Positions 18,831-56,040 of a stretch of 64,000 bases of DNA are shown here, in pieces (positions within the stretch are counted from its first letter, which is position 1; every line of letters begins with the position of its first letter). The notes beneath the pieces are model-generated. The model did not search any database, was not told the origin of the DNA, and was given only the letters and a program-made list of their open reading frames with translations. The stretch is taken from contig JAKPTE010000014.1 of the NCBI GenBank assembly GCA_029571215.1, positions 28,082-92,081 of the forward strand, written 5' to 3'. This stretch comes from Bacteroidota bacterium (GTDB lineage Bacteria; Bacteroidota; Bacteroidia; Bacteroidales; JAAYUG01). The translations under genes and the position numbers were made by a program.

Positions 18831-20354
18831 TTACTGATGGCGCATTACTTTATATAAATATAGGTACTCCCTTCTGGAAACAAGCCTGAGAAAATCCCCT
18901 TCGAGAGGGATGCAGGAAACCACTGCGCTCACATTTTTAAAAGAAATGTCTGATAAAAGGATGCCAGGATTATCCTGCACTTTCCGGTTAAGAAGTACTT
19001 TCTGGTACCATTCATATATTTTGTCAGAGCGCGTGGGTACAAACCGGTACACAACAAATGGTTTTCGTTCCGATATTCGTGGAACAGAAAGGATATTGTC
19101 CGGATCTTCGCAAAGCAGGAGAAATTCATCATCCCGGTTTGTTTCCCGTTTCAGATCCTCAGCAATGGCCCTTGCGATCTGCGCATGCCTGTTATCGGAT
19201 TTCCTTTTCTCCATTCTTCCGGTAATAAGAAATCCGTAGGAAACGGTTAATACCAGCAAGGCAGCAAGGCTATTCCCTGCTATCCTGCGAATGAAGTCAC
19301 CTGCAGGACCTTCTTTCTTTCTTAAAAACTCCGAAAGAAGGATTATCCCTTCCATCTGAAAGAGAAACATTGCAAGACCATTGCCACGAAACGGATAATA
19401 TTTGAGAAAATAACCCTGCCTGTCGAACAAGGCTTTACCAAGCCCAATAAATACCTGGGTTAAGATAATGATCAGAAGTAGATTGAGCCGCGACAAAATT
19501 CCTGTTTTCCGGTTCCTGCTGACAAGCCATGCCACAACGAAAACACCTGCAGCCAAAATCACCCTCGGGAAGTGACGATGAAAAAAATAGGGAAAGGACT
19601 TAAATAAGCCAATATGGTGAGGATTTCTGAAAAAAACATATATATAATTGGTATTAACACCATGTACAATGGGCGAATTGTCTTTTATCAGGCCTGAGTA
19701 CAGATAGATGAGAAGCGGAACGAACAGCAAAAGAAAGACACCTGCAAGTGCTACCGTCCTATTCAGGCTTATTTTCCTGATCTGCAAATAAATAAAAAGA
19801 TAAAATGCCCACCAGCCACCGGCAAGAAGGTGCCAGTATACAGCAATAATAGCCAGGATGACTGATGGTAGATATTTTTCGTTGAGCAGGAAGTACAGAG
19901 AAGCAAGAACAAAAGCATAACTGATGGTCTTGGATTCGAGGGGACCAAATATCCACTCGCCTGCAAACAATGATTGCTGGGGAAGATAGAAAAACGGAAA
20001 CCAAAGAAGAAAAGCCATATTTGATATTCCTGCAAGCCGTAGGATTCCAGCAAGCGGAAAAGCAACCATAATGTAACTTAATAGTCTCCCCCAGAAAGCA
20101 ACCTGTTCAAAAGAAAAATGTCTAAGAAAAAAACCGGCGACCCATTGGAAAAGAATGCGGGAACCGGGGAAATCGTCAAACACATCTGTGCCTGCCATCC
20201 AGGATGGGTCTGCAAATCTGCGGGCATATCCCAGGTATTGTTCTTCATTTCCGTCGAGTACAAAGCCAAGAAAATAAAGACTCAGGACAAACACGATCCA
20301 TACAGCAGGATGCACTTTATTGATGAAGGAAACAATCCGGGCAGACCACTTCAT
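18831..20354 (-). CDS. Polytopic membrane protein, GT-C-like architecture (family unassigned)
   Basis: 507 aa with roughly 11 hydrophobic segments over aa 14-385, then a ~120-aa hydrophilic tail. An acidic motif LDGNEEQYLGYARRF follows TM1. It starts 6 nt downstream of a GtrB/ArnC-type GT2. Confidence 0.55.
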   Translation of the reverse strand: MKWSARIVSFINKVHPAVWIVFVLSLYFLGFVLDGNEEQYLGYARRFADPSWMAGTDVFDDFPGSRILFQWVAGFFLRHFSFEQVAFWGRLLSYIMVAFPLAGILRLAGISNMAFLLWFPFFYLPQQSLFAGEWIFGPLESKTISYAFVLASLYFLLNEKYLPSVILAIIAVYWHLLAGGWWAFYLFIYLQIRKISLNRTVALAGVFLLLFVPLLIYLYSGLIKDNSPIVHGVNTNYIYVFFRNPHHIGLFKSFPYFFHRHFPRVILAAGVFVVAWLVSRNRKTGILSRLNLLLIIILTQVFIGLGKALFDRQGYFLKYYPFRGNGLAMFLFQMEGIILLSEFLRKKEGPAGDFIRRIAGNSLAALLVLTVSYGFLITGRMEKRKSDNRHAQIARAIAEDLKRETNRDDEFLLLCEDPDNILSVPRISERKPFVVYRFVPTRSDKIYEWYQKVLLNRKVQDNPGILLSDISFKNVSAVVSCIPLEGDFLRLVSRREYLYLYKVMRHQ

Positions 20355-20360
20355 AATGTC

Positions 20361-21284
20361 TCAGTCAATATATTCTTCCCGAACAATAAACAGTGGCCGA
20401 CGGCGGGTTTCATCGTAGATACGTACCATGTACTCACCGATAAGACCCAGGGCAACAAGCTGTACTCCGCTGAATAACGATATAAAAATAATGAGGGTTG
20501 TAAAACCTTGCGGAACGTCACCGTAGACGTATTTCTTTACCAGAGTGATGACAATATATATAATGGAAATTAAAACAACTGTCAGTCCCAACCTGCTGAT
20601 CAGACGAACCGGATACTCACTGAAGCTGAAAATTCCGTTAAAAGCCAAACGCAAAAGTTTTCTCAGCGTATACTTAGGTTCTCCTCCCTGTCGGCGATCC
20701 CTGTCATACTCAAGTCCGATCTGCCTGAATCCAAGCCATGAACGAATTCCCCGGATATAAAGGCTTTGCTCCCGCATGTTTATCAGATGCCTGATTACCG
20801 TATTCCTCATCAGGGCAAAGTCGCCGCTATCGAGCGGAATATAGATGTTCGACATCCGTTTGAAAATCCTGTAATAGGCCCAGTAAATCATCCGTTTTGG
20901 AAAAGACTCCTTTCTTTTCTTTCTTATGGCATAAACCACATCGTATCCTTCTTCCGCCTTGGCCAGAAACTCGCCCAGAAGCTCCGGAGGATCCTGCAGA
21001 TCACCGTCCATTACACCAACAAACTCTCCCCGGGCGTAGGTCAACCCGGCAAATATGGCCGCCTGATGGCCAAAATTCCTTGACAGGGAAAGAACCTTAA
21101 ACCGTTTTTCCAGAGTATGATAGTGTTTCAGTTTTTCCAGGGTTGCATCCTTACTTCCATCGTCCACACATATGATCTCATAATCTGAAGTGAGATTGTT
21201 CAAAGCCCTGGTGGTTCTTTCAAACAACTGATCAATCAGTATTTCCTCGTTGTAAACCGGTATAACCAGCGAAAGTTTTGGCAT
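20361..21284 (-). CDS. GT2 polyprenyl-phosphate glycosyltransferase (GtrB/ArnC/DPM1-like)
   Basis: The track ORF runs to 21368; ATG 21284 gives MPKLSLVIPVYNEE, the usual N-terminus for this family. Has VDDGSKD, DGDLQDPPE and two C-terminal TM helices. Confidence 0.8.
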   Translation of the reverse strand: MPKLSLVIPVYNEEILIDQLFERTTRALNNLTSDYEIICVDDGSKDATLEKLKHYHTLEKRFKVLSLSRNFGHQAAIFAGLTYARGEFVGVMDGDLQDPPELLGEFLAKAEEGYDVVYAIRKKRKESFPKRMIYWAYYRIFKRMSNIYIPLDSGDFALMRNTVIRHLINMREQSLYIRGIRSWLGFRQIGLEYDRDRRQGGEPKYTLRKLLRLAFNGIFSFSEYPVRLISRLGLTVVLISIIYIVITLVKKYVYGDVPQGFTTLIIFISLFSGVQLVALGLIGEYMVRIYDETRRRPLFIVREEYID

Positions 21285-21417
21285 CTGCACATTAATAAAT
21301 AAGCAAAGATAATACATGAACTCATCCTGACAAAACACCTGACTCTCCATTTCAGGCAAGAGGAACATCCATGCATATTCACCTGTCTATGTGCCGGATG
21401 CGATATTTTATGCTCTT

Positions 21418-21449
21418 TTTGTACCTTACTTTTCTTTTTATTAATTTTG
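21418..21449 (+). promoter_or_regulatory. Consensus Bacteroidota promoter (TTTG-N20-TAATTTTG) driving tRNA-Arg
   Basis: TTTG at 21418-21421, a 20-nt spacer, then TAATTTTG at 21442-21449. The mature tRNA 5' end is 10 nt further downstream. Confidence 0.55.
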
Positions 21450-21459
21450 CATCACTATT

Positions 21460-21533
21460 GGTCCCGTAGTTCAATTGGATAGAATATCAGATTCCGGTTC
21501 TGAGGGTTGGGGGTTCGAGTCCCTCCGGGATCA
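21460..21533 (+). tRNA. tRNA-Arg (anticodon CCG)
   Basis: Hand-folded 74-nt cloverleaf. Acceptor GGTCCCG/CGGGATC; anticodon stem TCAGA/TCTGA with loop TTCCGGT; T arm GGGGG-TTCGAGT-CCCTC. CCA is not encoded. Confidence 0.9.
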
Positions 21534-21553
21534 CTAAACATAAGAAAAACACA

Positions 21554-21586
21554 AGAGGGAGATTCTTCCAAATCTCCCTCTTTTTC
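21554..21586 (+). terminator. Rho-independent terminator after tRNA-Arg
   Basis: Perfect 10-bp stem AGAGGGAGAT/ATCTCCCTCT with an 8-nt loop, followed by TTTTC. Confidence 0.6.
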
Positions 21587-21613
21587 ATGTAACCAACCTG
21601 TTACCAACCAAAA

Positions 21614-21637
21614 CTAACCTAACTACTAACCTAACTA
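21614..21637. repeat. Tandem duplication of the 12-mer CTAACCTAACTA inside an AACC/TAAC-rich low-complexity tract
   Basis: CTAACCTAACTA at 21614-21625 and again at 21626-21637. The surrounding 21591-21660 is built from AACC, TAAC and CTAAC units. Confidence 0.8.
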
Positions 21638-21875
21638 ACCATTTAACCTGTTTTTTTACCCTTTTTATTATTAGACGCAAAAACAGAGAAAATATTGCGG
21701 CATATATCTTTTATTTAACAACCTTTAACATCTTTCTTCACTTTATTAAACGTATGGGTACATAAAAAGTTTAATTTTTACACAAATTGGTAAAAATCAT
21801 AGATAAATATCTGTTATCTGTCCATAAAATAAATTTCCCCTCATAATGTGAGCTTTGCTTTGTATTTTTGTGTAC

Positions 21876-23579
21876 ATGAGCAACAAAGTTTTATCTGGCA
21901 GTTATCTGCTGATTCTGGCTGTTGTTACGGGAATTGCATATTTTATCAATTTGGGTTACAACGATATATGGAACCCCAATGAAGGCTTTTACGCCGATGC
22001 TGTCCGTCATCTTCTTCAAAACAATAATTGGCTGGATTTCTTTTTCAATAATGAATACCGTTTCAATAAACCTCCCGTGACATATTGGTTAATTGCCTTG
22101 AGTTGCAGATTGTTCGGTCTAAGCGAGTTTTCTATCCGGCTTCCTATTGTTCTCTTCGCCATTGGAACTTGTTTTCTAACAGGCTTTATTAGTAGCATAC
22201 TTTTCGGAAGGAAGACGGCCCTTTGGAGTGGTTTGGTTATGGCAGTAAGCTTTCAGTTTCTCATTAACACCCGCTATGCTACCCCGGAAATTCCCCTTAC
22301 TTTCTTCTTCACACTTACCATGTACTTCTTTGTCAGGTATATTGCATACCGCAAACCATCTGACCTGTGGCCCGTATGGATTTTTCTGGGTGTTACGATG
22401 CTTGTTAAAGGGTATCCTTACCTGATTATCATTCTGGCCATTTTATTATCCTATGCATTTTCCCTTACGGGAAGAAACTTCAAAAGCCTTTTTCATGAAC
22501 TGAAACATTACAGGATGATAACCGGAATAGTGATTGCACTTATTATAGGTATGAGCTGGCCTTTCTATTCATGGCTAAAATTCGGAAACGATTTTCTCCA
22601 TGTGCTGGATACCGAAACAACTTACCGTGCATTCCGTTACCAGGCTGACTGGTTCAGCGATCTTTTCTTTTTCCCTCTTGTTATGCTCTGGGGATTTCTC
22701 CCATATTCCCCAGTCTTTATCCCAGTAGCTGTTGCTTCTGCCATCAGAGCTGATTACCGGAAGGAATTACTTTTTCCTCTTGTTTGGGTAGCAGTAATGC
22801 TCGTAACTTTCACGATTGCAAGGTTCAAATTACCCACATATTTCATCCAGGCCCATCCTGCCATGGCGGTCATCACAGGCTGGTACCTTAGCCAATCGCG
22901 GTTTTCTGATGGATTTGAACGTTGGATACAGCGTCTGGGAATTCTTCTGCCGGGCGCAGTTCTTTTACTGGTTTTTCTTGCCATTATTTTTTTGCTAAAT
23001 ACCAGCCGGTTCTTTTTGCTTCTTCTCCTTCTTCCTTCGTCAGCTCTTATTTTCAGTTACAAAAGCCCTGACAAACGAAGGTTTATCTTCACTTTTCCTA
23101 TAACTGCACTGATAGCTCTGTTTATACTGTTTGCCGGAGGGATACTTCCTTCTATGGAAAAAGTCAGACCGTATAAAGCAATTGGAGAAGCAATACGATC
23201 GAACTCGAAAGGAAAAAACAGTTATGTTTTTCTCGAGAACCGGTTTCTTCACAATCTCCCTTATTATAGCAGGCAAAAGGTAGCTTCCATTGGTTCAGGG
23301 GCCCTGCAAAAAATTTCCATCCAGGTACCTTATTTTCTTCTTGCGGAAAAAACCGATACTATAAAAACAAATACAACTCTTCTTCTTTGGGAAGGGATTG
23401 TGTATAACAGGAACTCCGAGGCAGCCTTTTTCCCCTTTCTCATTAGTTATTATCATTATCTTCACAGAGATAGTTCGGGCTTTAAAAAATACCGTCTGTT
23501 GATGGTTTGTCCGACGAAAGAAGCTATTCCTGAAAAAATGCCTGAAAAAGACAAACAAACATGGACAAGGTTTCCGTAG
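21876..23579 (+). CDS. ArnT/PMT_2-like GT-C glycosyltransferase (GT39/GT83-like)
   Basis: The track starts at TTG 21855; ATG 21876 gives MSNKVLSGSYLLILAVV. After TM1 it has IWNPNEGFYADAVRHL and FNKPPVTYWL, resembling the ArnT/PMT_2 first-loop and KPPL motifs. Polytopic throughout with a C-terminal soluble part. Confidence 0.75.
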   Translation: MSNKVLSGSYLLILAVVTGIAYFINLGYNDIWNPNEGFYADAVRHLLQNNNWLDFFFNNEYRFNKPPVTYWLIALSCRLFGLSEFSIRLPIVLFAIGTCFLTGFISSILFGRKTALWSGLVMAVSFQFLINTRYATPEIPLTFFFTLTMYFFVRYIAYRKPSDLWPVWIFLGVTMLVKGYPYLIIILAILLSYAFSLTGRNFKSLFHELKHYRMITGIVIALIIGMSWPFYSWLKFGNDFLHVLDTETTYRAFRYQADWFSDLFFFPLVMLWGFLPYSPVFIPVAVASAIRADYRKELLFPLVWVAVMLVTFTIARFKLPTYFIQAHPAMAVITGWYLSQSRFSDGFERWIQRLGILLPGAVLLLVFLAIIFLLNTSRFFLLLLLLPSSALIFSYKSPDKRRFIFTFPITALIALFILFAGGILPSMEKVRPYKAIGEAIRSNSKGKNSYVFLENRFLHNLPYYSRQKVASIGSGALQKISIQVPYFLLAEKTDTIKTNTTLLLWEGIVYNRNSEAAFFPFLISYYHYLHRDSSGFKKYRLLMVCPTKEAIPEKMPEKDKQTWTRFP

Positions 23580-24505
23580 TTGTACCGGTTTATAATGAAG
23601 AGGATAACATAATTCCTCTGTCAGAGGCCTTGCACAAAGCGCTTCAGGGATATGATTTCGAGATTATTTTCATTGATGACGGCTCTGATGACCATACTGC
23701 AGAGAAAATACAATCGTTGAAAAAGAAAACTATTACGCTGATTGAATTCACAAAGAATTTCGGCCAGAGTCTGGCGATGGCGGCTGGTATTGCTTATGCT
23801 AAGGGAGATTTTATTGTGACCATTGACGGAGATTTACAGAATGATCCTGCCAACATACCCGGAATGCTGAAAAAACTGAAAGAAGAAGAATGGGATATGG
23901 TTGCCGGATACCGGCAAAAGAGAAAAGATCCTTTTGTTACTCGAATTCTACCCAGCCGGATTGCCAACTTTTTCATCCGCATGCTGACAGGTGTTCACTT
24001 CAGGGATTACGGGTGTACCCTGAAGGTTTTCCGAGCTGAATTGGCAAAGCAGTTAGAACTATATGGAGAACTTCACCGGTTTATCCCTGTGTTGGCAGCA
24101 TTTGAAGGAGCCCGTATCACCCAGATGCCGGTAAACCATCTCCCCAGGCATTCAGGCAATTCCAAATATGGCCTGGGAAGAACGTTCAGAGTTCTGAGCG
24201 ATTTGTTGTTCATCCTGTTTTTGAAAAAGTATTTTCTCAGGCCTATGCATCTTTTTGGGACAACAGGAGTAATAATTCTTCTTGCAGGGGTATTTATCAA
24301 TCTGTATCTCCTGGGAATAAAAATAATGGGAAATGACATCTGGGGAAAGCCGCTTCTGTTTCTTGCCGTTCTTCTTGTCATCGGAGGCATTCAGCTGATA
24401 ACCATTGGTATCTTTGCCGAATTCCTTATGCGTATTTATTTCCGTTCATCGGATAAACCACCATATAGGATCAAAAGGATATCGAAGGGGATCCAGGAAG
24501 AATGA
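23561..24505 (+). CDS. GT2 polyprenyl-phosphate glycosyltransferase (GtrB/ArnC-like)
   Basis: 314 aa with VVPVYNEE, IDDGSDD, DGDLQNDPA and two C-terminal TM helices. Its start overlaps the upstream GT-C gene by 19 nt. Confidence 0.8.
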   Translation: MDKVSVVVPVYNEEDNIIPLSEALHKALQGYDFEIIFIDDGSDDHTAEKIQSLKKKTITLIEFTKNFGQSLAMAAGIAYAKGDFIVTIDGDLQNDPANIPGMLKKLKEEEWDMVAGYRQKRKDPFVTRILPSRIANFFIRMLTGVHFRDYGCTLKVFRAELAKQLELYGELHRFIPVLAAFEGARITQMPVNHLPRHSGNSKYGLGRTFRVLSDLLFILFLKKYFLRPMHLFGTTGVIILLAGVFINLYLLGIKIMGNDIWGKPLLFLAVLLVIGGIQLITIGIFAEFLMRIYFRSSDKPPYRIKRISKGIQEE

Positions 24506-47243: not shown

Positions 47244-48119
47244 ATGGCTGCAAAAAAGAATGCGCTTGGTCGTGGTCTCGGTGCTCTGATTGATTCAGAA
47301 GAGGAAAAGGAACAAATTGTCAGGTCAGTGGCCGGGATTTCCGAAATTCCCGTAGAACAGATTGAAACGAATCCATTTCAGCCCCGTACCGGGATGGATG
47401 AAGAATCTCTTGCTGAACTGGCTTCTTCTGTAGCCAGGCTGGGTATTATTCAGCCCATAACCGTTCGGGAACTGGGTGAAAACAGATACCAGATTATCAC
47501 CGGTGAACGGCGCTGGAGGGCAGCAAAAATCGCCGGCCTCGAAACGATTCCGGCTTACGTCAGAAAAGCCGACGATCAGGGAATGCTCGAAATGGCCCTG
47601 GTTGAAAACATTCAGCGTGAAGACCTCAATGCTATTGAAGTTGCCATCAGTTACCAGCGGCTGATTGAGGAATGTAAACTCACTCAGGAAATGCTGAGCG
47701 AACGGGTCGGAAAAAACAGATCCACCATTTCAAACTATCTCCGTTTGCTGAAATTACCGGCCGAGATACAGCTTGGCCTCAGGGAAAACCGGCTTTCCAT
47801 GGGGCATGCCCGCGCACTGATAACTCTGGAAGATCAGGAAATTCTGATGAAAATCTACAACAAGATCATCCATGAGGATCTTTCTGTTCGCAAAACAGAG
47901 GCACTTATTAAAAAACTCACCGAAGCCAAACCTTCTGAAGAAACACCGGAAGAAGTTCCTGCTGCTTATCACGACCTGCAGGAACATTTGTCACGCTTCT
48001 TTGAAATTCCGGTTGAATTCAAACGGAGCAATAAAGGAAGCGGCCGGATCGTTCTTCACTTCCGTAATGACGAGGAACTTGAAAAAATTATTGCTGTCCT
48101 TGACCGCCTTAACCGTTAA
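47244..48119 (+). CDS. parB: Chromosome partitioning protein ParB (Spo0J)
   Basis: 291 aa with the ParB box GERRWRAAK and an HTH region (TQEMLSERVGKNRSTISNYLRLL). Confidence 0.93.
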   Translation: MAAKKNALGRGLGALIDSEEEKEQIVRSVAGISEIPVEQIETNPFQPRTGMDEESLAELASSVARLGIIQPITVRELGENRYQIITGERRWRAAKIAGLETIPAYVRKADDQGMLEMALVENIQREDLNAIEVAISYQRLIEECKLTQEMLSERVGKNRSTISNYLRLLKLPAEIQLGLRENRLSMGHARALITLEDQEILMKIYNKIIHEDLSVRKTEALIKKLTEAKPSEETPEEVPAAYHDLQEHLSRFFEIPVEFKRSNKGSGRIVLHFRNDEELEKIIAVLDRLNR

Positions 48120-48171
48120 AAACGGCAGCGACGGATTGCAAACTACCTTTTACCGGAAGAATTACGCATTC

Positions 48172-48744
48172 GTGAAGTCCATTCTCATTTTCATTTTTTT
48201 GCTGGTTTTTACCGGTAACTTTCTGGGTCTGACAGAATCCGTTCAGGCCCAGGATACAGTGCCGCGGATAACAACTGATTCGGTTCTGTACCGTCATTCT
48301 CCTCAACGGGCTATGATGCTGGCTGCTGCATTCCCCGGTCTTGGACAGATATATAATCGCAAGTACTGGAAAGCACCACTGGTTTATATTGGATTCGGAA
48401 CCCTTGCCTATTTTGTTGATTTTAACAATAAAAAATACCAGCATTTTAAAAAGGCCTACCTTTATAAAATTGACGGGGACCCTGCTACCGTTGACATATA
48501 CGAACAATATACCGAACAGTCGGTAAAAAATGCCATGGACACTTACCGAAGATGGCGTGATATGAATCTACTTGGGACGGCCGGTTTTTATGTCATACAG
48601 ATAATTGATGCAACGGTTGATGCTTACCTTTTTGAATACGATATCACTCCAGACCTGAGCATGCACATTGTTCCCGATTTCCGACAAATTGATTATCTTG
48701 CAGCCCGCAGTGCAGGTTTACGAATCGTGTTTAACTGGAAATAA
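48172..48744 (+). CDS. DUF5683-like membrane protein
   Basis: The track ORF (47872) overlaps parB for 248 nt. GTG 48172 gives VKSILIFIFLLVFTGNFLGLTESVQAQ, a signal-like N-terminus; ATG 48067 is the alternative. The core is AAAFPGLGQIYNRKYWKAPLVYIGFG. The stop overlaps the next start as TAATG. Confidence 0.6.
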   Translation: MKSILIFIFLLVFTGNFLGLTESVQAQDTVPRITTDSVLYRHSPQRAMMLAAAFPGLGQIYNRKYWKAPLVYIGFGTLAYFVDFNNKKYQHFKKAYLYKIDGDPATVDIYEQYTEQSVKNAMDTYRRWRDMNLLGTAGFYVIQIIDATVDAYLFEYDITPDLSMHIVPDFRQIDYLAARSAGLRIVFNWK

Positions 48745-50263: not shown

Positions 50264-50992
50264 ATGAAAAGGCTCACGGTTCTCATTCCTGCATTCAACG
50301 AGGAGAATACGATCCGCGATATCCTTTCTGCCGTAACCGAAGCAGAATTACCTGAAATAGAAAAAGAAGTACTCATCATTGATGACGCCTCAACAGACAG
50401 AACCTTTGAACTGGCTGAGGTGTTTGCGGAATCAAATCCCCAGTATCGCATACGTGTAGTTCGACAGCCGCACAATATGGGGAAAGGCGCTGCTATTCAC
50501 CGTGGGATAAAGGAAGCATCGGGCGATTTTATTGTGGTGCAGGATGCAGACCTGGAATACGACCCGAGGGAATATAAAGATCTCCTCCGACCGATTCTTG
50601 AAGGATATGCCGATGTTGTCTATGGTTCACGTTTTATGGGGGCCAATCCACACAGGATTCTTTTCTTCTGGCATACCATAGGAAACAAATTCCTGACTTT
50701 CCTGTCGAACATGTTTACCAACCTCAATCTGACGGATATGGAAACATGCTATAAAATGTTCAGGGCTGAAATTTTAAAAAATCTTGACCTTCGTGAAAAA
50801 AGGTTTGGATTTGAACCGGAAGTCACTGCCCGGATTGCCAGAATCAAGGGCATCCGCATTTACGAGGTTGGCATTTCTTATTACGGAAGAACCTATGAAG
50901 AAGGAAAGAAAATCAAATGGAAAGACGGATTCCGGGCCATCTGGTGTATCCTGAAGTACAATCTTTTTATCAGAAATCCTTATAAACCATAG
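50264..50992 (+). CDS. Soluble GT2 glycosyltransferase (DPM1/Alg5-like, no TM segments)
   Basis: 242 aa with VLIPAFNEE, IDDASTD and QDADLEYDP. It starts 2 nt after the transglycosylase stop. Confidence 0.8.
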   Translation: MKRLTVLIPAFNEENTIRDILSAVTEAELPEIEKEVLIIDDASTDRTFELAEVFAESNPQYRIRVVRQPHNMGKGAAIHRGIKEASGDFIVVQDADLEYDPREYKDLLRPILEGYADVVYGSRFMGANPHRILFFWHTIGNKFLTFLSNMFTNLNLTDMETCYKMFRAEILKNLDLREKRFGFEPEVTARIARIKGIRIYEVGISYYGRTYEEGKKIKWKDGFRAIWCILKYNLFIRNPYKP

Positions 50993-51012
50993 AAATACTG
51001 AAGCTGTTACCA

Positions 51013-52365
51013 TCAAGGTTGTATCAATTTTCTCTTCTTGATACCCGCCGTACTTTTTTTCCAGAAGGTTCTTGCTGCTTCAAACACCCTTCCCAAACTT
51101 TCAGGAGGGATTTTCTCCGACAGCCAACGGGCAGGACGGGAAGAAAGGATGAAAAACAGGAGGGAAATAACCGCTTCCATTATCCATCGTGAAACAGGGA
51201 ATCGGCCCGACTGAAGCCCGTATTCAGGCACTTTACGACCCATCCATTTTCTGAATTGTATCCTGATAAAGGCACCTCTCTTTTTAAAATCATAACCATG
51301 TGAATGCATCCTGATGGCCTCTTCCGGCGAAAGAGGAATAAAGCTGATTTCATTCTTTTCAACCATTTCCCGGAAAATAGCGTCTCCCGGAACGCTTCGG
51401 GTAATGATGAGCGAGAATCCTTTCCCTCTTTCCTCGTAAGCAGGCGCCCAAGCATCTCCTCCCGACAGGTCAGTAAATTCGTTGGTAAAATCAATACAAT
51501 AAAGACTTGATTTACAAATATGAAAAGGTATCAGATAGTTGGCATGAAACTTTTTCAGTTGAATAACCTTTCCTGAATCGAGTTCAATCCGTGTGGCTCC
51601 GGGCCATTCACCCGAACGGAATTCAAGTTTCCTTATGCTCCGGTAGTCGGTTACACTATAGCTTTTTAGCAGGCTGACTATCGAAGAAAAATGAAGGATA
51701 TTTCCATAGAACGGCCCGACAACATATCGGACATTCCTGACAAACGGATGTTGTCTTTGCTGAAGAAGCCGGATCGACTGCACTTGTCCCGGCAGACCCG
51801 TGTAGGCGAGTTTCCCCTGAAATCGTGCTATTTGGGGAAGAATTTCATTTACTGAGCTGATAGTATATTTGCTCTGTGCTGCAGAAAGGATTTCCTCCGG
51901 AGTTGTGGCAATGAAAGGTTTATTCAGCCAGGGTTTTTCTTTCGACATACCCAGAACCACCACTCCGTCAACTTCCTTTTTCTCAAGCAAATAAATGAGC
52001 AAATGGCTTAAAATGCCGCCGCTGGATCCCGCACGCCGGATTTCCGGATGATTTGACCAGGCGATGCCAATCTGCCGGTATGTCCCCATGTAGGGATGAA
52101 AATGCCCTTCATCAGCAAATATATACCTGTTGAGCAGAGGAAAATCAACACCTTTTCCGGAACACACCTGATAAATGCGCTCAGCCAAATCTTCGTCCAA
52201 TGCGTGGTTTATAACCGGCAGATACTTCCCTTCCCTGTCGGCAAAAACAATCTGTCCCTCAGAGAGTCCTGCACAGCTACCGCAACGGTTACACAAGGCT
52301 GTATCGCGCATGATGCGCAAAAGCTTTTCACTGCTTTTCACAGACATAAAACTGTCGTATTCCAA
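51013..52365 (-). CDS. FrhB/FdhB-like Fe-S flavoprotein (annotated family name: coenzyme F420 hydrogenase/dehydrogenase beta subunit-like)
   Basis: 450 aa with an N-terminal CNRCGSCAGL cysteine cluster, RRAGSSGGILSHLL (SSGG flavin-site-like) and TGLPGQVQSIR (resembles the family GxPCQ motif with Cys to Gly). It has a C-terminal hydrophobic helix (WIMEAVISLLFFILSS). Start is ambiguous: 52365, 52347 or 52311. Confidence 0.6.
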   Translation of the reverse strand: MEYDSFMSVKSSEKLLRIMRDTALCNRCGSCAGLSEGQIVFADREGKYLPVINHALDEDLAERIYQVCSGKGVDFPLLNRYIFADEGHFHPYMGTYRQIGIAWSNHPEIRRAGSSGGILSHLLIYLLEKKEVDGVVVLGMSKEKPWLNKPFIATTPEEILSAAQSKYTISSVNEILPQIARFQGKLAYTGLPGQVQSIRLLQQRQHPFVRNVRYVVGPFYGNILHFSSIVSLLKSYSVTDYRSIRKLEFRSGEWPGATRIELDSGKVIQLKKFHANYLIPFHICKSSLYCIDFTNEFTDLSGGDAWAPAYEERGKGFSLIITRSVPGDAIFREMVEKNEISFIPLSPEEAIRMHSHGYDFKKRGAFIRIQFRKWMGRKVPEYGLQSGRFPVSRWIMEAVISLLFFILSSRPARWLSEKIPPESLGRVFEAARTFWKKSTAGIKKRKLIQP

Positions 52366-53059
52366 GTTCCGAAATAAAAGTTCCCTGGCTTTTGCGGATA
52401 ATCATTTCCCCTGCTTTTTGCAGCCAGACAGGACCTATGGGAATCAAAAGCGTTCCTTCGTGGTAAATAAGTTTCCACCCTGTAATTCTTAGCCATTTCT
52501 TCACCTTGCGGCTGGAAGGGAATCGGTGTGGACCTTCACCATGCCCTCCAAAGAGAAAAGAATATATGCGATAAGGAATTTCGCTCATGGCCGGGGGACA
52601 ACTGAGAACAAGCCGTGCATCCGAAGTGCCAACACGGTAAAGTTCCTGCAAAAACCTCACGGGATTTTCCACATGCTCAATCGTTTCCAGGCTGAGAATC
52701 CTTTCAAAGCTGCCATCATCAAAGGGTAGTTGGGAATAAGTTGCAATCTTAATCTGTCTTATCCCTGGATAAAGAAGAGAGGCAACCTGCATAAGTCCCT
52801 CCGAAATCTCGGCATGCAAAACACTCAGGTCATTGCAGGCATTCTTCAGGTAAGGTTCGGCTCCTCCGTCGCGGCTTGTAATATTGAGAAGCCTTTGACC
52901 CGGATGCAGATCAAGAAAAGAAACAGCTTTTATGAACCGCTGGGCATGCGCTTTTTCAACTTTCCTGTTTTCCGTCAGATATATCGAAGCAACCGAATCC
53001 CAATGAGCTTCAACATCTCCGTCGGTCCATGGATTCTGATATATTTCCTCCGGCTTCAT
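52328..53059 (-). CDS. Class I SAM-dependent methyltransferase
   Basis: 243 aa with Methyltransf_11-like motifs (LLNITSRDGG, FDDGSFERILSLETIEHVENP). Its start overlaps the upstream GT2 stop as ATGA. Confidence 0.75.
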   Translation of the reverse strand: MKPEEIYQNPWTDGDVEAHWDSVASIYLTENRKVEKAHAQRFIKAVSFLDLHPGQRLLNITSRDGGAEPYLKNACNDLSVLHAEISEGLMQVASLLYPGIRQIKIATYSQLPFDDGSFERILSLETIEHVENPVRFLQELYRVGTSDARLVLSCPPAMSEIPYRIYSFLFGGHGEGPHRFPSSRKVKKWLRITGWKLIYHEGTLLIPIGPVWLQKAGEMIIRKSQGTFISELGIRQFYVCEKQ

Positions 53060-53928
53060 AACAAAGGGTTTCTTCGGTTCAGCATGGCAATCTGGTCAGC
53101 CAGCAGACCAATAAAAAACATCATCACCCCCATCAGGGTAACCAATACTGCACTGTTGGAAAACCTTGAGAAGGAAATATAACCGTATATTCCGAAGCCC
53201 AAACCACACAGGATGAGGAGTATGCTTACCGGAGCAAAGATCTTCAATGGATTAAACAACATGATAATTCTAAGTATCAAAAGGATGGTTTTTGCACCAT
53301 CGCGAAAAAAACGCACGGTGCTCTTCCTTCCTTCCCTTATAAAAGATTGAATCGGCACTGTTCCGACGGAGTACCCTTCTTTAAGAAAAGCAAGGGTGGA
53401 GGTGGTTGAAAAAGAGAACCCATTGGGAAGAAGATGGAGGATTCCCAGCATGAGGGTGCGGTCAAAAATGCGAAAACCGGAGTTAAAATCGGGCAGTGGT
53501 TGTTCGACCAAATATTCTCCCACGATGCGAATAATTTTCTTTCCCAGGCTGCGGGTACGATCCTGGGGGGTATTCTTGTTCCTTTCTCCGATAACCATAT
53601 CGAAGGAATTCAAAGCATGGTAAAGAGCAGGTATGTCTTTCGGATGGTGCTGACCATCGCTGTCAAGAATCAGAATTTTCTTTCCGGTGGCTTTTCTGAT
53701 CCCTGTTTTCAAAGCAGCCCCATACCCTTTGTTTACTGAATGACGGAATACTTTCACGGGGAAAGCCGATGCCACAGAAAAAGTTTGATCGGTAGACCCG
53801 TCATCCACTACTATAATTTCATGGCACTGCACTGAACGGATAAGTTCTTCCAGAACCTTCGCTAAAGTTGCCTCTTCATTGTAGGCGGGAATAACAACCG
53901 ACAGGTCAGGCAGTAGGATATCAGCCAT
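53056..53928 (-). CDS. GT2 polyprenyl-phosphate glycosyltransferase (GtrB/DPM1-like, two C-terminal TM helices)
   Basis: 290 aa with VVIPAYNEE, VDDGSTD and LDSDGQHHP, plus C-terminal TM helices. Confidence 0.8.
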   Translation of the reverse strand: MADILLPDLSVVIPAYNEEATLAKVLEELIRSVQCHEIIVVDDGSTDQTFSVASAFPVKVFRHSVNKGYGAALKTGIRKATGKKILILDSDGQHHPKDIPALYHALNSFDMVIGERNKNTPQDRTRSLGKKIIRIVGEYLVEQPLPDFNSGFRIFDRTLMLGILHLLPNGFSFSTTSTLAFLKEGYSVGTVPIQSFIREGRKSTVRFFRDGAKTILLILRIIMLFNPLKIFAPVSILLILCGLGFGIYGYISFSRFSNSAVLVTLMGVMMFFIGLLADQIAMLNRRNPLL

Positions 53929-54009
53929 ATTTTGGTATCTTTTGATTTCCGGCTATACAAGTCAAAGTAAGTAAATTTTTTGTCCTATTCCTTTCCCCGA
54001 TTTTTTCAT

Positions 54010-54017
54010 TAGCTTTG
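54010..54017 (+). promoter_or_regulatory. -7 promoter box TAGCTTTG upstream of the 665-aa membrane protein gene
   Basis: Exact TAnnTTTG match, 25 nt upstream of ATG 54043. Confidence 0.3.
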
Positions 54018-54042
54018 GGATTCATCATAAAAACGTAAGATA

Positions 54043-56040
54043 ATGAAAAACAAAGATTTGTCCAGGCTTGAAATGGTACTTTTTATTATTTTATGCCTGG
54101 GCAACCTGATTCCATTATTGTTTATCCGTTGGTTTCCGTCGATGGACGGACCAGCCCATATTTATTCGGCCAATATAGTTAAGGAAATACTGAAAGGCAA
54201 TATGGACATCAGGGAATTTTTTTCACTCTCCCTTCTTGTTCCCAATCTGACAGGATCCCTTCTTCTTTCTTTGCTTCATTTTGTATTTCCTGCCTGGCTG
54301 GCCGAAAAAGTACTTATTGCGACCATAGTTATTCTTCTGCCCTTAAGCTTTCGCTACTTTGTTTACAGTTTCAGAAAAAAACCGACCTTACTTACACTCA
54401 CCATTTTTCCGTTCATATGGCACTTTCTTTTTATGATCGGATTTTATAATTATTCACTTGGGCTATCGATTGTGCTCTTTACTCTCGGCTATTACATCAG
54501 AACACGAGAAAAAGGCGCGATTAAAGACGTTGTTTTGCTGGGATGTCTGACCCTTCTTCTGGCCTTCACTCACATTTTCGCATTTGTGGTATTTGGTATC
54601 ATTTGGCTGGTTTTGTTACTGGGAGATCTGGCAGGGTTTCTTCGAAAAGACCGACGGGAAGGCCTGCTTTCTGAACTAATGCGCCGGTACGGAAGATATC
54701 TGATTGTGGTCTTACCAGGTGTTTTATTCGTAATTTCCTACCTGATAGGAATGAAAGAGGGCCAGGTCGGTGGAGGAACTAACCGTTACCTTTCTGCCGG
54801 GGAACATTTCCGATGGTTACTGATTACCCGGCCTCTGATTATATATTACCTGGAAAAAGAATCTTTTTATGGAATGATCATCGCGGCTATTCTGGCAATT
54901 TGGATCGTTGCTTCCTTTTTTTACCGATCAAAAAAAGACCGGGAAAAGAAAAACAAAACGATATTACGAAACTTTTTGCTGGGCGGCACCCTGTTAATTC
55001 TGTTTTTTTATTTCGTTCTTCCTGATTTTAAAGCCGGTGCAGGCGGGCATCTTTCACTCAGGTTACTGATTCCTTTTTATCTATTTCTGCTTGCCTGGCT
55101 AAGCACACGCAAATTGCCAGTCTGGTTACAAGCATCAGGGCTAACTGGTTTTCTGTTTTCGACTGTCATGCTTTGGAATGTTCACCTGCCGGAGTTGCGA
55201 AAAATGAGCCTTGAGGCAATATCCCTGGTTGAGGCAGGCAAAAAAATACCTGCCGGCATGGTAGTATTGCCTGTTAATGCAGGAAATAACTGGCTCCAGG
55301 AGCATTTTCTGAACTATACGGGAGCGGAAAATCCGTTGATCATTCTTGATAATACAGTTGCTTCCGGCGGGGGCATTATCCGGTGGGCAAACCCTCTTGC
55401 CAATCTGCCTGGGCGATTTGGAGGAAAGCTAATGTTCGAAGATACAGCACTTTTTTCTGATCCTTTTGTCAGAAATAGAGTGGATGCAATTATTGTCTGG
55501 AAGGTTGACCAGCGCGATCGCAACTGGCCCTCTTTTGCTATGCGAATGTTTGGTGAGTATTTTCCCTATGATACCATTTGCGGAGGGTATGGATGGCTCT
55601 ATGTTAATAAAAAATACAAGCCAAATGACAGTGTTTTGTTAAAATGGAAAACACCTGTTCCTCCCCGTTCTTCAGCTCTGTTTATTCTGGACCAGCCACG
55701 CACGGGAAATGATGAGTTCTTTGAACTGGCAAAAAAACCGTTGCTTCCCGGATACAAAAAGGAACTGGTCTGGTATCGTTTTGAAGTTTCCATACGCTCA
55801 GATTCACTGACACCTGCAGATTCTGTTTATCTGACATGCATGATAGAAAATAAAGGGAAAGTAATTGATTACGATGCGCTTGCATTTCAAACAGATACAA
55901 TGGCAAGGACCTATCGCATGGAATACCACCCTCCCTTAAAGACAAGTAAAGATGATATTTTAAAAATGTACCTGTGGAATCCGGCACATAAGAACCTGAG
56001 CATTTTGTCGGGCCGTGGAGTGATGTATACAGGCAAATAA
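54043..56040 (+). CDS. Large polytopic membrane protein, GT-C-like architecture (family unassigned)
   Basis: 665 aa with at least 10 hydrophobic segments in the first ~375 aa, then a ~290-aa hydrophilic C-terminal domain. MDGPAHIYSANIV follows TM1. It is divergent from the GT2-MTase-FrhB-like operon. Confidence 0.55.
   Translation: MKNKDLSRLEMVLFIILCLGNLIPLLFIRWFPSMDGPAHIYSANIVKEILKGNMDIREFFSLSLLVPNLTGSLLLSLLHFVFPAWLAEKVLIATIVILLPLSFRYFVYSFRKKPTLLTLTIFPFIWHFLFMIGFYNYSLGLSIVLFTLGYYIRTREKGAIKDVVLLGCLTLLLAFTHIFAFVVFGIIWLVLLLGDLAGFLRKDRREGLLSELMRRYGRYLIVVLPGVLFVISYLIGMKEGQVGGGTNRYLSAGEHFRWLLITRPLIIYYLEKESFYGMIIAAILAIWIVASFFYRSKKDREKKNKTILRNFLLGGTLLILFFYFVLPDFKAGAGGHLSLRLLIPFYLFLLAWLSTRKLPVWLQASGLTGFLFSTVMLWNVHLPELRKMSLEAISLVEAGKKIPAGMVVLPVNAGNNWLQEHFLNYTGAENPLIILDNTVASGGGIIRWANPLANLPGRFGGKLMFEDTALFSDPFVRNRVDAIIVWKVDQRDRNWPSFAMRMFGEYFPYDTICGGYGWLYVNKKYKPNDSVLLKWKTPVPPRSSALFILDQPRTGNDEFFELAKKPLLPGYKKELVWYRFEVSIRSDSLTPADSVYLTCMIENKGKVIDYDALAFQTDTMARTYRMEYHPPLKTSKDDILKMYLWNPAHKNLSILSGRGVMYTGK

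Follow-up and report, generated by a model that had tools for sequence, protein, structure and literature searches.

Five genes at one locus

We analysed a 64-kb stretch of Bacteroidales DNA (the window, whose positions serve as coordinates throughout), with a focus on a locus of five genes that an earlier note had read as a single unit for envelope glycosylation. The locus encodes two family 2 glycosyltransferases (GT2a and GT2b), a methyltransferase-like protein, a protein related to FrhB and a polytopic membrane protein of 665 amino acids (aa). The five open reading frames (ORFs), their coordinates, their overlaps and the 114-bp divergent spacer were all confirmed directly from the sequence (Table 1).

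Table 1. Genes and other features at the locus and on its flanks
Feature	Position	Strand	Description
Upstream flank			ParA, ParB, DUF5683, SLT/LysM lytic transglycosylase
GT2a	50264-50992	+	242 aa; PF00535
FrhB-like gene	51013-52347	-	444 aa from ATG 52347; alternative TTG at 52365; PF04422 and PF04432
Methyltransferase-like gene	52328-53059	-	243 aa; PF08241
GT2b	53056-53928	-	290 aa; PF00535; first gene of the triad operon
Divergent intergenic region	53929-54042		114 bp
-7 box, Bacteroidota type	54010-54017		TAGCTTTG; pattern TAnnTTTG; 26 nt before the ATG of the 665-aa gene
665-aa gene	54043-56040	+	polytopic; GT-C-like predicted fold
Downstream flank			LepA, AI-2E-family transporter, two-component system

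The closest database relatives of the encoded proteins come from Bacteroidales metagenome-assembled genomes (MAGs), at 95-98% identity. Since orthologues of the five genes are found at 55-98% identity and the ratio of non-synonymous to synonymous substitution rates (dN/dS) against sister genomes is 0.05-0.09 across the locus, these are not chance ORFs.

The methyltransferase-like gene overlaps both of its neighbours. Read directly from the sequence, its start and the stop of GT2b share an ATGA, as had been described previously, and the ATG of the FrhB-like gene sits 20 nt within it. The overlap between the methyltransferase-like and FrhB-like genes is found in all loci examined. Alignment of orthologues placed the start of the FrhB-like gene at the ATG and not at the alternative TTG. 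Upstream of the 665-aa gene, the divergent intergenic region carries a -7 box of the Bacteroidota type (Table 1). Scans of the locus for sigma-70 promoters and intrinsic terminators gave matches no commoner than in shuffled sequence.

A conserved operon of three genes

GT2b, the methyltransferase-like gene and the FrhB-like gene (hereafter the triad) recur together in other genomes. We scanned one genome per species for the FrhB-like subfamily and found 229 positive species genomes. The surrounding locus was recovered for 80 of these, and neighbour counts cover 79 loci. All 229 belong to uncultured organisms. The 80 recovered loci come from MAGs, almost all of them assigned to Bacteroidales, Bacteroidota or Lentimicrobiaceae (the last in many cases), with one from Candidatus Delongbacteria. 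Identity across these species-level loci is about 55-79%. Below, individual loci from other genomes carry L numbers and families of polytopic membrane proteins carry c numbers, c14 being the family of the 665-aa protein.

Conservation as a unit, which the earlier note had named as one of the points on which its reading could fail, is what we found. A methyltransferase gene lies directly upstream of the FrhB-like gene in 74 of the 79 loci, and GT2b follows as the second gene upstream in 68. The position directly downstream is taken by a PF03706/TIGR00374 flippase-like membrane protein (70 of 79 loci), after which a short-chain dehydrogenase/reductase (SDR) of the epimerase/dehydratase type is encoded in 21. 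Among the 42 loci flanked by 6 kb or more on either side, 37 have a GT-C or GT-C-like gene near the triad. These genes belong to families c4, c14, c43, c26, c44, c25 and c29, several of which contain PMT_2.

Homologues of the flippase-like gene, the SDR and c4 were found nowhere in the 64-kb window, and likewise not in the stretches of its closest relatives, L001 and L005. The triad is under strong purifying selection in this lineage (dN/dS 0.06-0.09 against L005). Judging from gene content, the triad here is a reduced copy of an operon that is widespread in Bacteroidales.

A pyruvyl transferase was considered as a partner of the FrhB-like gene. In line with the earlier note, we found none among the genes annotated around the locus (44-64 kb). 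In the related loci, where the annotation covered part of the neighbour families, the slot after the FrhB-like gene belongs to the flippase-like gene in 70 of 79. Literature searches (FrhB with pyruvyl transferase, F420 with capsule, and the Pfam accessions) returned no paper on a combination of GT2, methyltransferase-like and FrhB-like genes, in line with the earlier note, which knew of no characterised system of this composition.

The related loci show further recurrent neighbours. In about eight of them (L014, L015, L027, L030, L035 and L045 among them), one or two paralogues of nucleoside diphosphate (NDP)-sugar 4,6-dehydratases (GDP_Man_Dehyd/Epimerase) directly precede GT2b, and these loci carry a PMT_2 GT-C two genes past the flippase-like gene. 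This arrangement suggests that the sugar donor of those lineages is a 6-deoxy or 4-keto sugar.

Pairs of MBOAT and AlgX-like SGNH proteins adjoin both the triad operon and genes of the 665-aa family (L017:14067-17101, L028, L081, L084, L140, L151). They resemble a glycan O-acetylation module, which hints at an O-acetylated glycan as acceptor. Finally, the triad operon and the GT2a/GT-C pair often lie between PBP1a (upstream) and a MurF-alanine racemase fusion with PdxA (downstream), for example in L020, L033, L066 and L080. The window differs in that GT2a follows an SLT/LysM lytic transglycosylase. This recurring neighbourhood of peptidoglycan genes may be meaningful, or may only be conserved housekeeping synteny.

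GT2a and the 665-aa gene persist without the triad

The earlier note had taken the five genes as one unit. A natural deletion, the distribution of the 665-aa family and the synteny of GT2a instead point to two modules.

The deletion is found in L004, which has the same synteny from ParA to LepA and a 665-aa gene that is 69% identical. About 2.5 kb, equivalent to positions 50990-53470 of the window, have been cleanly removed, and with them the FrhB-like gene, the methyltransferase-like gene and the 3′ part of GT2b. What is left of GT2b is a pseudogene with an in-frame stop (L004:7369-7935, corresponding to 50990-53928 in the window). GT2a and the 665-aa gene are both intact in L004, with dN/dS values of 0.06 and 0.09, respectively.

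The wider family of the 665-aa protein gives a similar picture. None of 80 metagenome loci of this family contains the triad, and L003 and L085-L087 have the family without the triad. GT2a orthologues (64-79% identical) are found within the flanks of around 8-10 of these 80 loci, and PMT_2 GT-Cs, MBOAT proteins, AlgX-like proteins and PBP1a also recur as neighbours.

Next to GT2a, the following gene on the same strand encodes a polytopic membrane protein in 14 of 19 loci anchored on the FrhB-like gene (c4 in eight, c20 in four, c14 and c36 in one each). In L032, L086 and L111, the gene immediately after GT2a belongs to the 665-aa family. Two MAGs encode a GT2a orthologue (59-64% identical) as a fusion with a c36 polytopic membrane protein, in proteins of 718 aa (L062:13637-15793 and L074:11353-13509, both on the minus strand). 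This fusion is a Rosetta-stone link between a soluble GT2 and a membrane partner. Together, synteny and fusions suggest GT2a as the partner of the 665-aa protein, and in view of this gene order GT2a is the likely donor synthase for it.

In the window the triad separates GT2a from its GT-C partner and runs in the opposite direction. The divergent arrangement and the 114-bp spacer are common to the window and L001, whose 665-aa protein is only 41% identical, and the inverted arrangement is therefore old. The simplest history is that of a GT2a/GT-C pair within which the inverted triad came to lie and from which the triad was later lost in L004.

A GT-C-like protein from a very large family

The 665-aa protein had been described as GT-C-like in architecture. 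This was borne out by its predicted structure, while no Pfam or NCBIfam family could be assigned to it; 26 diverse members of its family gave no match to these databases either. No sequence match was found in the PDB, with the single sequence or with a profile.

The structural model (pLDDT 79, pTM 0.73) was built with 24 homologues. It has around 12 helices (residues 1-400), a periplasmic alpha/beta domain (400-535) and a C-terminal beta-sandwich (540-665) resembling a carbohydrate-binding module (CBM). The 13 best Foldseek matches in the PDB are ArnT, oligosaccharyltransferase complexes containing STT3, and AftA, with AftB lower in the list. These GT-C fold matches span E values of 7e-5 to 1e-2 and TM-scores of 0.30 to 0.47. 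For the C-terminal 125 residues, the matches are beta-sandwiches of CBM11, CBM16 and CBM4.

Directly after the first transmembrane (TM) segment, D35, G36 and H39 are invariant in 24 close and 26 diverse homologues. From the predicted topology, D35 would sit in the first periplasmic loop. It thus matches the hallmark of GT-C enzymes, an acidic residue in the first external loop. Other residues invariant in the family are K89, F124, G133, F134, E273, P327, R340, W417 and N437. Taken with the model, the protein looks like a GT-C.

Profile comparison with hhalign related the 665-aa family to c4 and c23 (97-98%, with 97% for c4) and to the PMT_2-containing c43 (94.7%). The families c4 and c23 are thus its remote homologues, and the relation to c43 is the only link of the protein to a curated GT-C sequence family. 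The same comparison gave no significant relation between this family and c20 or c36, and for this reason the GT-C status of these two is unproven.

The family at first seemed rare, with 24 matches in a word-index search. This reading was overturned by an exhaustive profile search, in which 8,702 representatives were found at E<=1e-3 and 2,418 at E<=1e-30. The family core is around 525 aa long, and only a few members carry the C-terminal beta-sandwich.

The two GT2 glycosyltransferases

GT2a and GT2b are, as proposed, a soluble and a membrane-anchored GT2 of the DPM1/GtrB type. Both match PF00535 (E 2e-34 and 1e-31, respectively) and both have a DxD motif, DAD at residue 94 in GT2a and DSD at residue 89 in GT2b. 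Their closest solved relatives are PfDPMS, ArnC and GtrB; for GT2a the best PDB match is PfDPMS (5mlz, E 1e-20), with GtrB and ArnC next. The alignment of GT2b to ArnC structures spans residues 8-282 and includes two C-terminal TM segments, in agreement with its hydrophobic segments at 213-254 and 256-283. GT2b also matches the AglJ model over the full length (8-286 of 293, E 2e-36).

The top NCBIfam models for both proteins are AglJ, PpgS, ArnC and dolichol phosphate (DolP)-hexose transferase. Every score is far below the equivalog cut-off (114-126 bits for AglJ against a cut-off of 325), so that the sugar of GT2a or GT2b cannot be named.

Hydrophobicity analysis found no TM segment in GT2a. 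Soluble enzymes of the DPM1 type exist, and a missing TM hairpin does not exclude GT2a from this class. By sequence relationship we class GT2a as a soluble GT2 of the DPM1/AglJ type, putatively a polyprenyl-phosphate sugar synthase. GT2b belongs with the membrane-anchored GT2s of the ArnC/GtrB/AglJ type and would load a sugar onto polyprenyl phosphate.

Unusual motifs in the methyltransferase-like and FrhB-like proteins

The earlier assignment of a class I S-adenosylmethionine (SAM) methyltransferase holds at the level of the family: the protein matches PF08241 (Methyltransf_11) with 43.8 bits against a cut-off of 21.2. The canonical GxGxG loop is missing. Motif I reads LLNITSRDGGA and not D/E-x-G-x-G-x-G, a variant that 77 orthologues share, with N59, S62, R63 and D64 conserved. 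The protein retains E84, the acidic residue that follows strand 2, as well as the later methyltransferase motifs. No close solved relative was found in the PDB, where the best match has an E value of 1.5e-4. Weak matches to lipid methyltransferases (CMAS/CFA synthase, fatty-acid O-methyltransferase and UbiE-type enzymes) reach 22 bits, below the curated cut-off of 27.

A fusion of a canonical class I methyltransferase to a GT2 (467-477 aa) recurs near the triad, as in L001:13070-14473 (minus strand) and L025:14538-15971 (plus strand). Its intact GxGxG contrasts with the non-canonical loop of the stand-alone methyltransferase-like protein of the triad.

The FrhB-like protein had been called an FrhB/FdhB-like Fe-S flavoprotein. 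Both domains and the fold support the first part of this description. PF04422 and PF04432 are matched with E values of 3e-24 and 2e-22 (85 and 80 bits against cut-offs of 22 and 23), and the structural model (pLDDT 73) finds 8riu_B, FrhB, HCAR and Fsr in Foldseek at E 1e-18 to 1e-14. Among these matches, 8riu_B is a subunit of an F420-reducing CO dehydrogenase. We know of no F420 synthesis in Bacteroidota.

To locate the core cluster, the profile was aligned to FrhB (6qgr_B) and 8riu_B, and cysteines shared by both were taken as [4Fe-4S] ligands. Three of these four positions are replaced (G/P193, Y220 and S287) and only C290 is retained, in 81 of 81 orthologues. The "Fe-S flavoprotein" label therefore needs qualifying. 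An N-terminal C25xxC28xxC31...C68 motif is invariant, with Ser35 at the place of the fourth cysteine of a ferredoxin.

The FrhB-like protein is otherwise strongly conserved. Mean column identity is 72%, the residues of the flavin-binding region (SGG, QSKY) are invariant, and the dN/dS of the gene is 0.064. An extra, conserved C-terminal region of around 100 residues contains a hydrophobic or amphipathic helix at about 383-403. As this helix is conserved and R393, E397 and F404 in its region are invariant, the protein probably acts at the membrane. The pattern of lost ligands suggests that its flavin is not supplied by the usual one-electron relay. As a speculation, a relay-free flavin would fit hydride chemistry coupled to methylation, either NAD(P)H-linked or as a redox-neutral "borrowed hydrogen".

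A proposed mechanism and its alternatives

On balance we favour, with modest confidence, the reading that the locus consists of two neighbouring modules for periplasmic glycosylation by lipid carriers of the Arn/Gtr type, and that it is not a single five-gene pathway. The direct observations on which this reading builds are the gene identities, the predicted folds, the synteny, the natural deletion and the purifying selection; the lipid-linked nature of the substrates, the sequence of events, the chemistry and the acceptor are inferred from them. The observation behind the earlier interpretation was confirmed, and the interpretation as a whole is partly supported.

In the first module, GT2a would attach a sugar to polyprenyl phosphate on the cytoplasmic side. 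Once flipped, this sugar would be passed on to an envelope glycan in the periplasm by the 665-aa GT-C-like enzyme. Asp35 would be the catalytic residue, and the C-terminal CBM-like domain may hold the acceptor.

In the second module, whose three genes are translationally coupled, GT2b would make a second polyprenyl-phosphate sugar. The methyltransferase-like and FrhB-like proteins would then modify this lipid-linked sugar, probably as a membrane-associated complex; methylation coupled to flavin-mediated hydride chemistry is our leading guess. In other genomes the operon normally goes on to encode the PF03706 flippase-like protein and a GT-C, and in many cases an SDR between them. In this organism, the modified product would be flipped by a PF03706 protein encoded elsewhere and then used by a GT-C.

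Several points weigh against these two modules. No curated GT-C model matches the 665-aa protein, and the TM-scores of its GT-C match are only 0.37-0.47. Only about 10% of the loci of the wider 665-aa family show an adjacent GT2a. In addition, c4 is the second gene downstream of the triad operon in 15 loci and c14 lies nearby in 4, and the 665-aa protein could therefore also use the product of the triad. No flippase of any recognised kind was found in the 64-kb window, so that in this lineage the second module may lack a part or be in decay. The methyltransferase-like protein lacks GxGxG and the FrhB-like protein lacks three cluster ligands, and either could be non-catalytic.

More tentatively, the methyltransferase-like and FrhB-like proteins may be the two halves of a new enzyme for modifying a sugar carried by polyprenyl phosphate, a possibility to which we attach some but limited weight. 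Its reaction could be a redox-assisted C- or O-methylation or an HCAR-like deoxygenation. It would yield an envelope sugar not known before, core to many Bacteroidales and delivered by the PF03706 flippase and the GT-C-like family that has no model. In one possibility for the redox-assisted methylation, a hydroxyl is briefly oxidised by the flavin, which afterwards gives the hydride back. Because the flavin itself returns the hydride, such a scheme would not need the canonical electron-relay cluster of FrhB.

The five genes could also form a single pathway, in which GT2b loads the sugar, the methyltransferase-like and FrhB-like proteins modify it on the lipid, the divergently encoded 665-aa GT-C transfers it and GT2a is an accessory. 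The divergent layout and spacer shared with L001 would fit this, as would the remote homologues of the 665-aa protein (c4, c14, c23), which lie after or beside the triad operon at 47 of the 79 loci. We nonetheless consider it unlikely, since L004 retains its 665-aa gene under purifying selection after deletion of the triad, the triad is absent from all 80 loci of the wider family as well as from L003 and L085-L087, and synteny and fusions indicate GT2a as the partner.

Within the triad, the two modifying proteins might instead tailor a nucleotide sugar before lipid loading, for example by methylation and reduction or deoxygenation of an NDP-keto-sugar, with GT2b transferring the product. The 4,6-dehydratase paralogues directly upstream of GT2b in about eight loci and the SDR in the operon of 21 would be expected in such a pathway. 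Fe-S flavoprotein reductases are known from deoxysugar synthesis, such as E1/E3 of 3,6-dideoxyhexose biosynthesis, and the best PDB matches of the methyltransferase-like protein include, weakly (E 1e-3), 3bus, which we take to be RebM, a sugar O-methyltransferase. The conserved hydrophobic C-terminal anchor of the FrhB-like protein fits a membrane substrate better, and the gene order (GT2b, methyltransferase-like, FrhB-like, flippase-like) puts the modifiers between loading and flipping. Tailoring at the nucleotide-sugar stage is in our judgement improbable.

The triad may also act on a lipid, either by SAM-dependent C=C methylenation and subsequent flavin-dependent reduction on the polyprenyl chain or a membrane lipid in the manner of BfaB/BfaA, or by making an end-product glycolipid that is flipped by PF03706, with no donor for a GT-C. 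In MprF, a protein that translocates a modified lipid, PF03706 forms the flippase domain. The fold matches of the FrhB-like protein include HCAR, and certain members of the FrhB family act on lipophilic tetrapyrroles, in which they reduce C=C bonds or hydroxymethyl groups; BciB is a further enzyme of this family with such substrates. The weak matches of the methyltransferase-like protein to lipid methyltransferases point the same way, and a methyltransferase and an FAD oxidoreductase are known to make 10-methyl stearate (PMC5660069). These matches are below the curated cut-offs, however, and a donor role is suggested by the GT-C genes that accompany the triad in 37 of the 42 loci with long flanks. 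The closest relatives of GT2b, moreover, all make carrier-linked donors, and we regard action on a lipid as decidedly doubtful.

Very little credence can be given to the idea that the methyltransferase-like and FrhB-like proteins are catalytically dead accessory subunits that stabilise or regulate GT2b, as DPM2/3, GacJ and Rv3632 do for their GT2s. The lost GxGxG loop, the three lost core-cluster cysteines and the overlapping genes, which suggest a stoichiometric complex, speak for it. Known accessory subunits are small membrane peptides, unlike enzyme folds of 243 and 444 aa, and the very high conservation of the FrhB-like protein, with its invariant SGG and QSKY, the retention of E84 and the later methyltransferase motifs and the dN/dS of 0.06-0.09 all argue against dead proteins.

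Finally, an ordinary capsule or O-antigen cluster, for which the several glycosyltransferases and the methyltransferase might speak, is rejected, being contradicted by the ParAB, SLT/LysM and LepA flanks, by the lack of Wzx, Wzy, Wza, an ABC exporter or an initiating phosphoglycosyltransferase within about 6 kb, and by the conservation of the triad, which is 55-63% identical across the 80 species-level loci recovered, unlike hypervariable capsule loci.

Comparison with known systems

The two proposed modules resemble several known systems in part. Arn (ArnC, ArnD, ArnE/F, ArnT) combines a membrane-anchored GT2, modification of a lipid-linked sugar, a flippase and periplasmic transfer by a GT-C. 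ArnC aligns with GT2b over its full length and ArnT is the top fold match of the 665-aa protein. However, the modifiers here are the methyltransferase-like and FrhB-like proteins, whereas Arn has a deformylase. The flippase candidate of the related loci is of the PF03706 type and not of the ArnE/F (SMR) type, and it is absent from the window. There is no ArnA or ArnB at this locus.

The GT2a/665-aa pair fits the plan of GtrA/B/C, CsbB/YfhO, GacI/GacL and PpgS/Rv3632/Rv3779, in which a GT2 synthase works with a polytopic GT-C. The NCBIfam models for PpgS and PgfS match both GT2s, below their cut-offs. The locus differs from the three-component systems of the Gtr type in that GT2a is without a TM segment, a GtrA-type flippase is missing, the 665-aa GT-C-like family has no Pfam or NCBIfam model, and GT2a is fused to a membrane partner in two MAGs.

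The concept of flavin redox chemistry on a lipid-linked sugar recalls DprE1/DprE2, the analogy drawn in the earlier note, and an SDR (the class of DprE2) is found in the operon of 21 of 79 related loci. We could not sustain this analogy, which rests only on the presence of a flavoprotein. DprE1 is a FAD oxidase of the VAO type, whereas the protein here has the FrhB fold and the methyltransferase-like protein as an obligatory partner. Membership of the DprE1 class is rejected on fold, and no SDR or other reductase partner is encoded in the window.

With the FrhB/FdhB/FpoF family, including HCAR and the N-terminal half of Fsr, the FrhB-like protein shares both Pfam domains, a TM-score of 0.7 (normalised to FrhB) and the flavin-binding motifs of the N-terminal domain. 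It differs from them in the replacement of three of the four core [4Fe-4S] cysteines, with one ferredoxin-like CxxCxxC...C kept, and in its C-terminal anchor region of around 100 residues.

In the Agl system of Haloferax volcanii (PMC3871713), GT2s of the AglJ type load a lipid phosphate carrier, and the lipid-assembled glycan receives a methylated sugar through the SAM methyltransferase AglP. AglD separately makes a DolP-mannose, which AglR helps to flip and AglS then transfers. AglJ is the best-matching model for both GT2s of the locus. Agl differs from the locus in being a system of archaeal N-glycosylation. Scores here are far below the AglJ cut-off, no oligosaccharyltransferase is encoded here, the methyltransferase-like protein lacks GxGxG, and Agl has no FrhB-like component.

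BfaB/BfaA, a methyltransferase and an FAD oxidoreductase, make 10-methyl fatty acids from a membrane-embedded substrate (PMC5660069). The likeness lies in the pairing of a protein of the class I methyltransferase fold with a flavoprotein reductase. Homology is limited to the generic methyltransferase fold, BfaA is not of the FrhB type, and the context here is one of glycosyltransferase genes.

Glycosylation from lipid carriers of this kind (Arn, Gtr, mycobacterial DPA/PPM) sets antibiotic resistance, phage receptors and envelope integrity. The present analysis newly defines a conserved uncharacterised operon of GT2, methyltransferase-like, FrhB-like and PF03706 flippase-like genes, whose FrhB-like marker is found in at least 229 species genomes. 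It also defines an FrhB subfamily that is without the core iron-sulfur ligands and has gained a membrane anchor, and a very large GT-C-like family for which Pfam and NCBIfam have no model. Both the operon of triad and flippase and the GT-C-like family are real, widespread and uncharacterised. If the triad does modify a lipid-linked sugar, it would be a new enzyme class beside ArnD, DprE1/E2 and AglP, the few enzymes known to act on sugars linked to polyprenyl phosphate. The natural deletion in L004 is a ready comparison for finding the product of the triad.

Flanking genes and other features of the window

GT2a is the last gene of a string formed by ParA, ParB, DUF5683 and SLT/LysM (Table 1). 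The neighbourhood consists of housekeeping genes and is not a capsule or O-antigen island.

Further glycosyltransferases are encoded at 18831-24505. There, a 335-aa GT2 with two C-terminal TM segments adjoins a 507-aa polytopic protein without a family match, and a 574-aa PMT_2/PMT GT-C overlaps a 314-aa GT2. With these two additional GT2s, the window has a total of four candidate GT2s of the polyprenyl-phosphate type. Of the four GT2s and three GT-C-like proteins counted previously, the GT2s and the PMT_2/PMT GT-C are thus accounted for, while the fold of the 507-aa protein is unverified; hhalign gave no significant relation between it and the 665-aa family, which leaves its GT-C status unproven.

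Finally, a 290-aa ORF listed at 47872-48744 (plus strand) overlaps the end of parB by around 250 nt. Only residues 141-288 match DUF5683 and the orthologues are 203-257 aa long, and the true start therefore probably lies well downstream.

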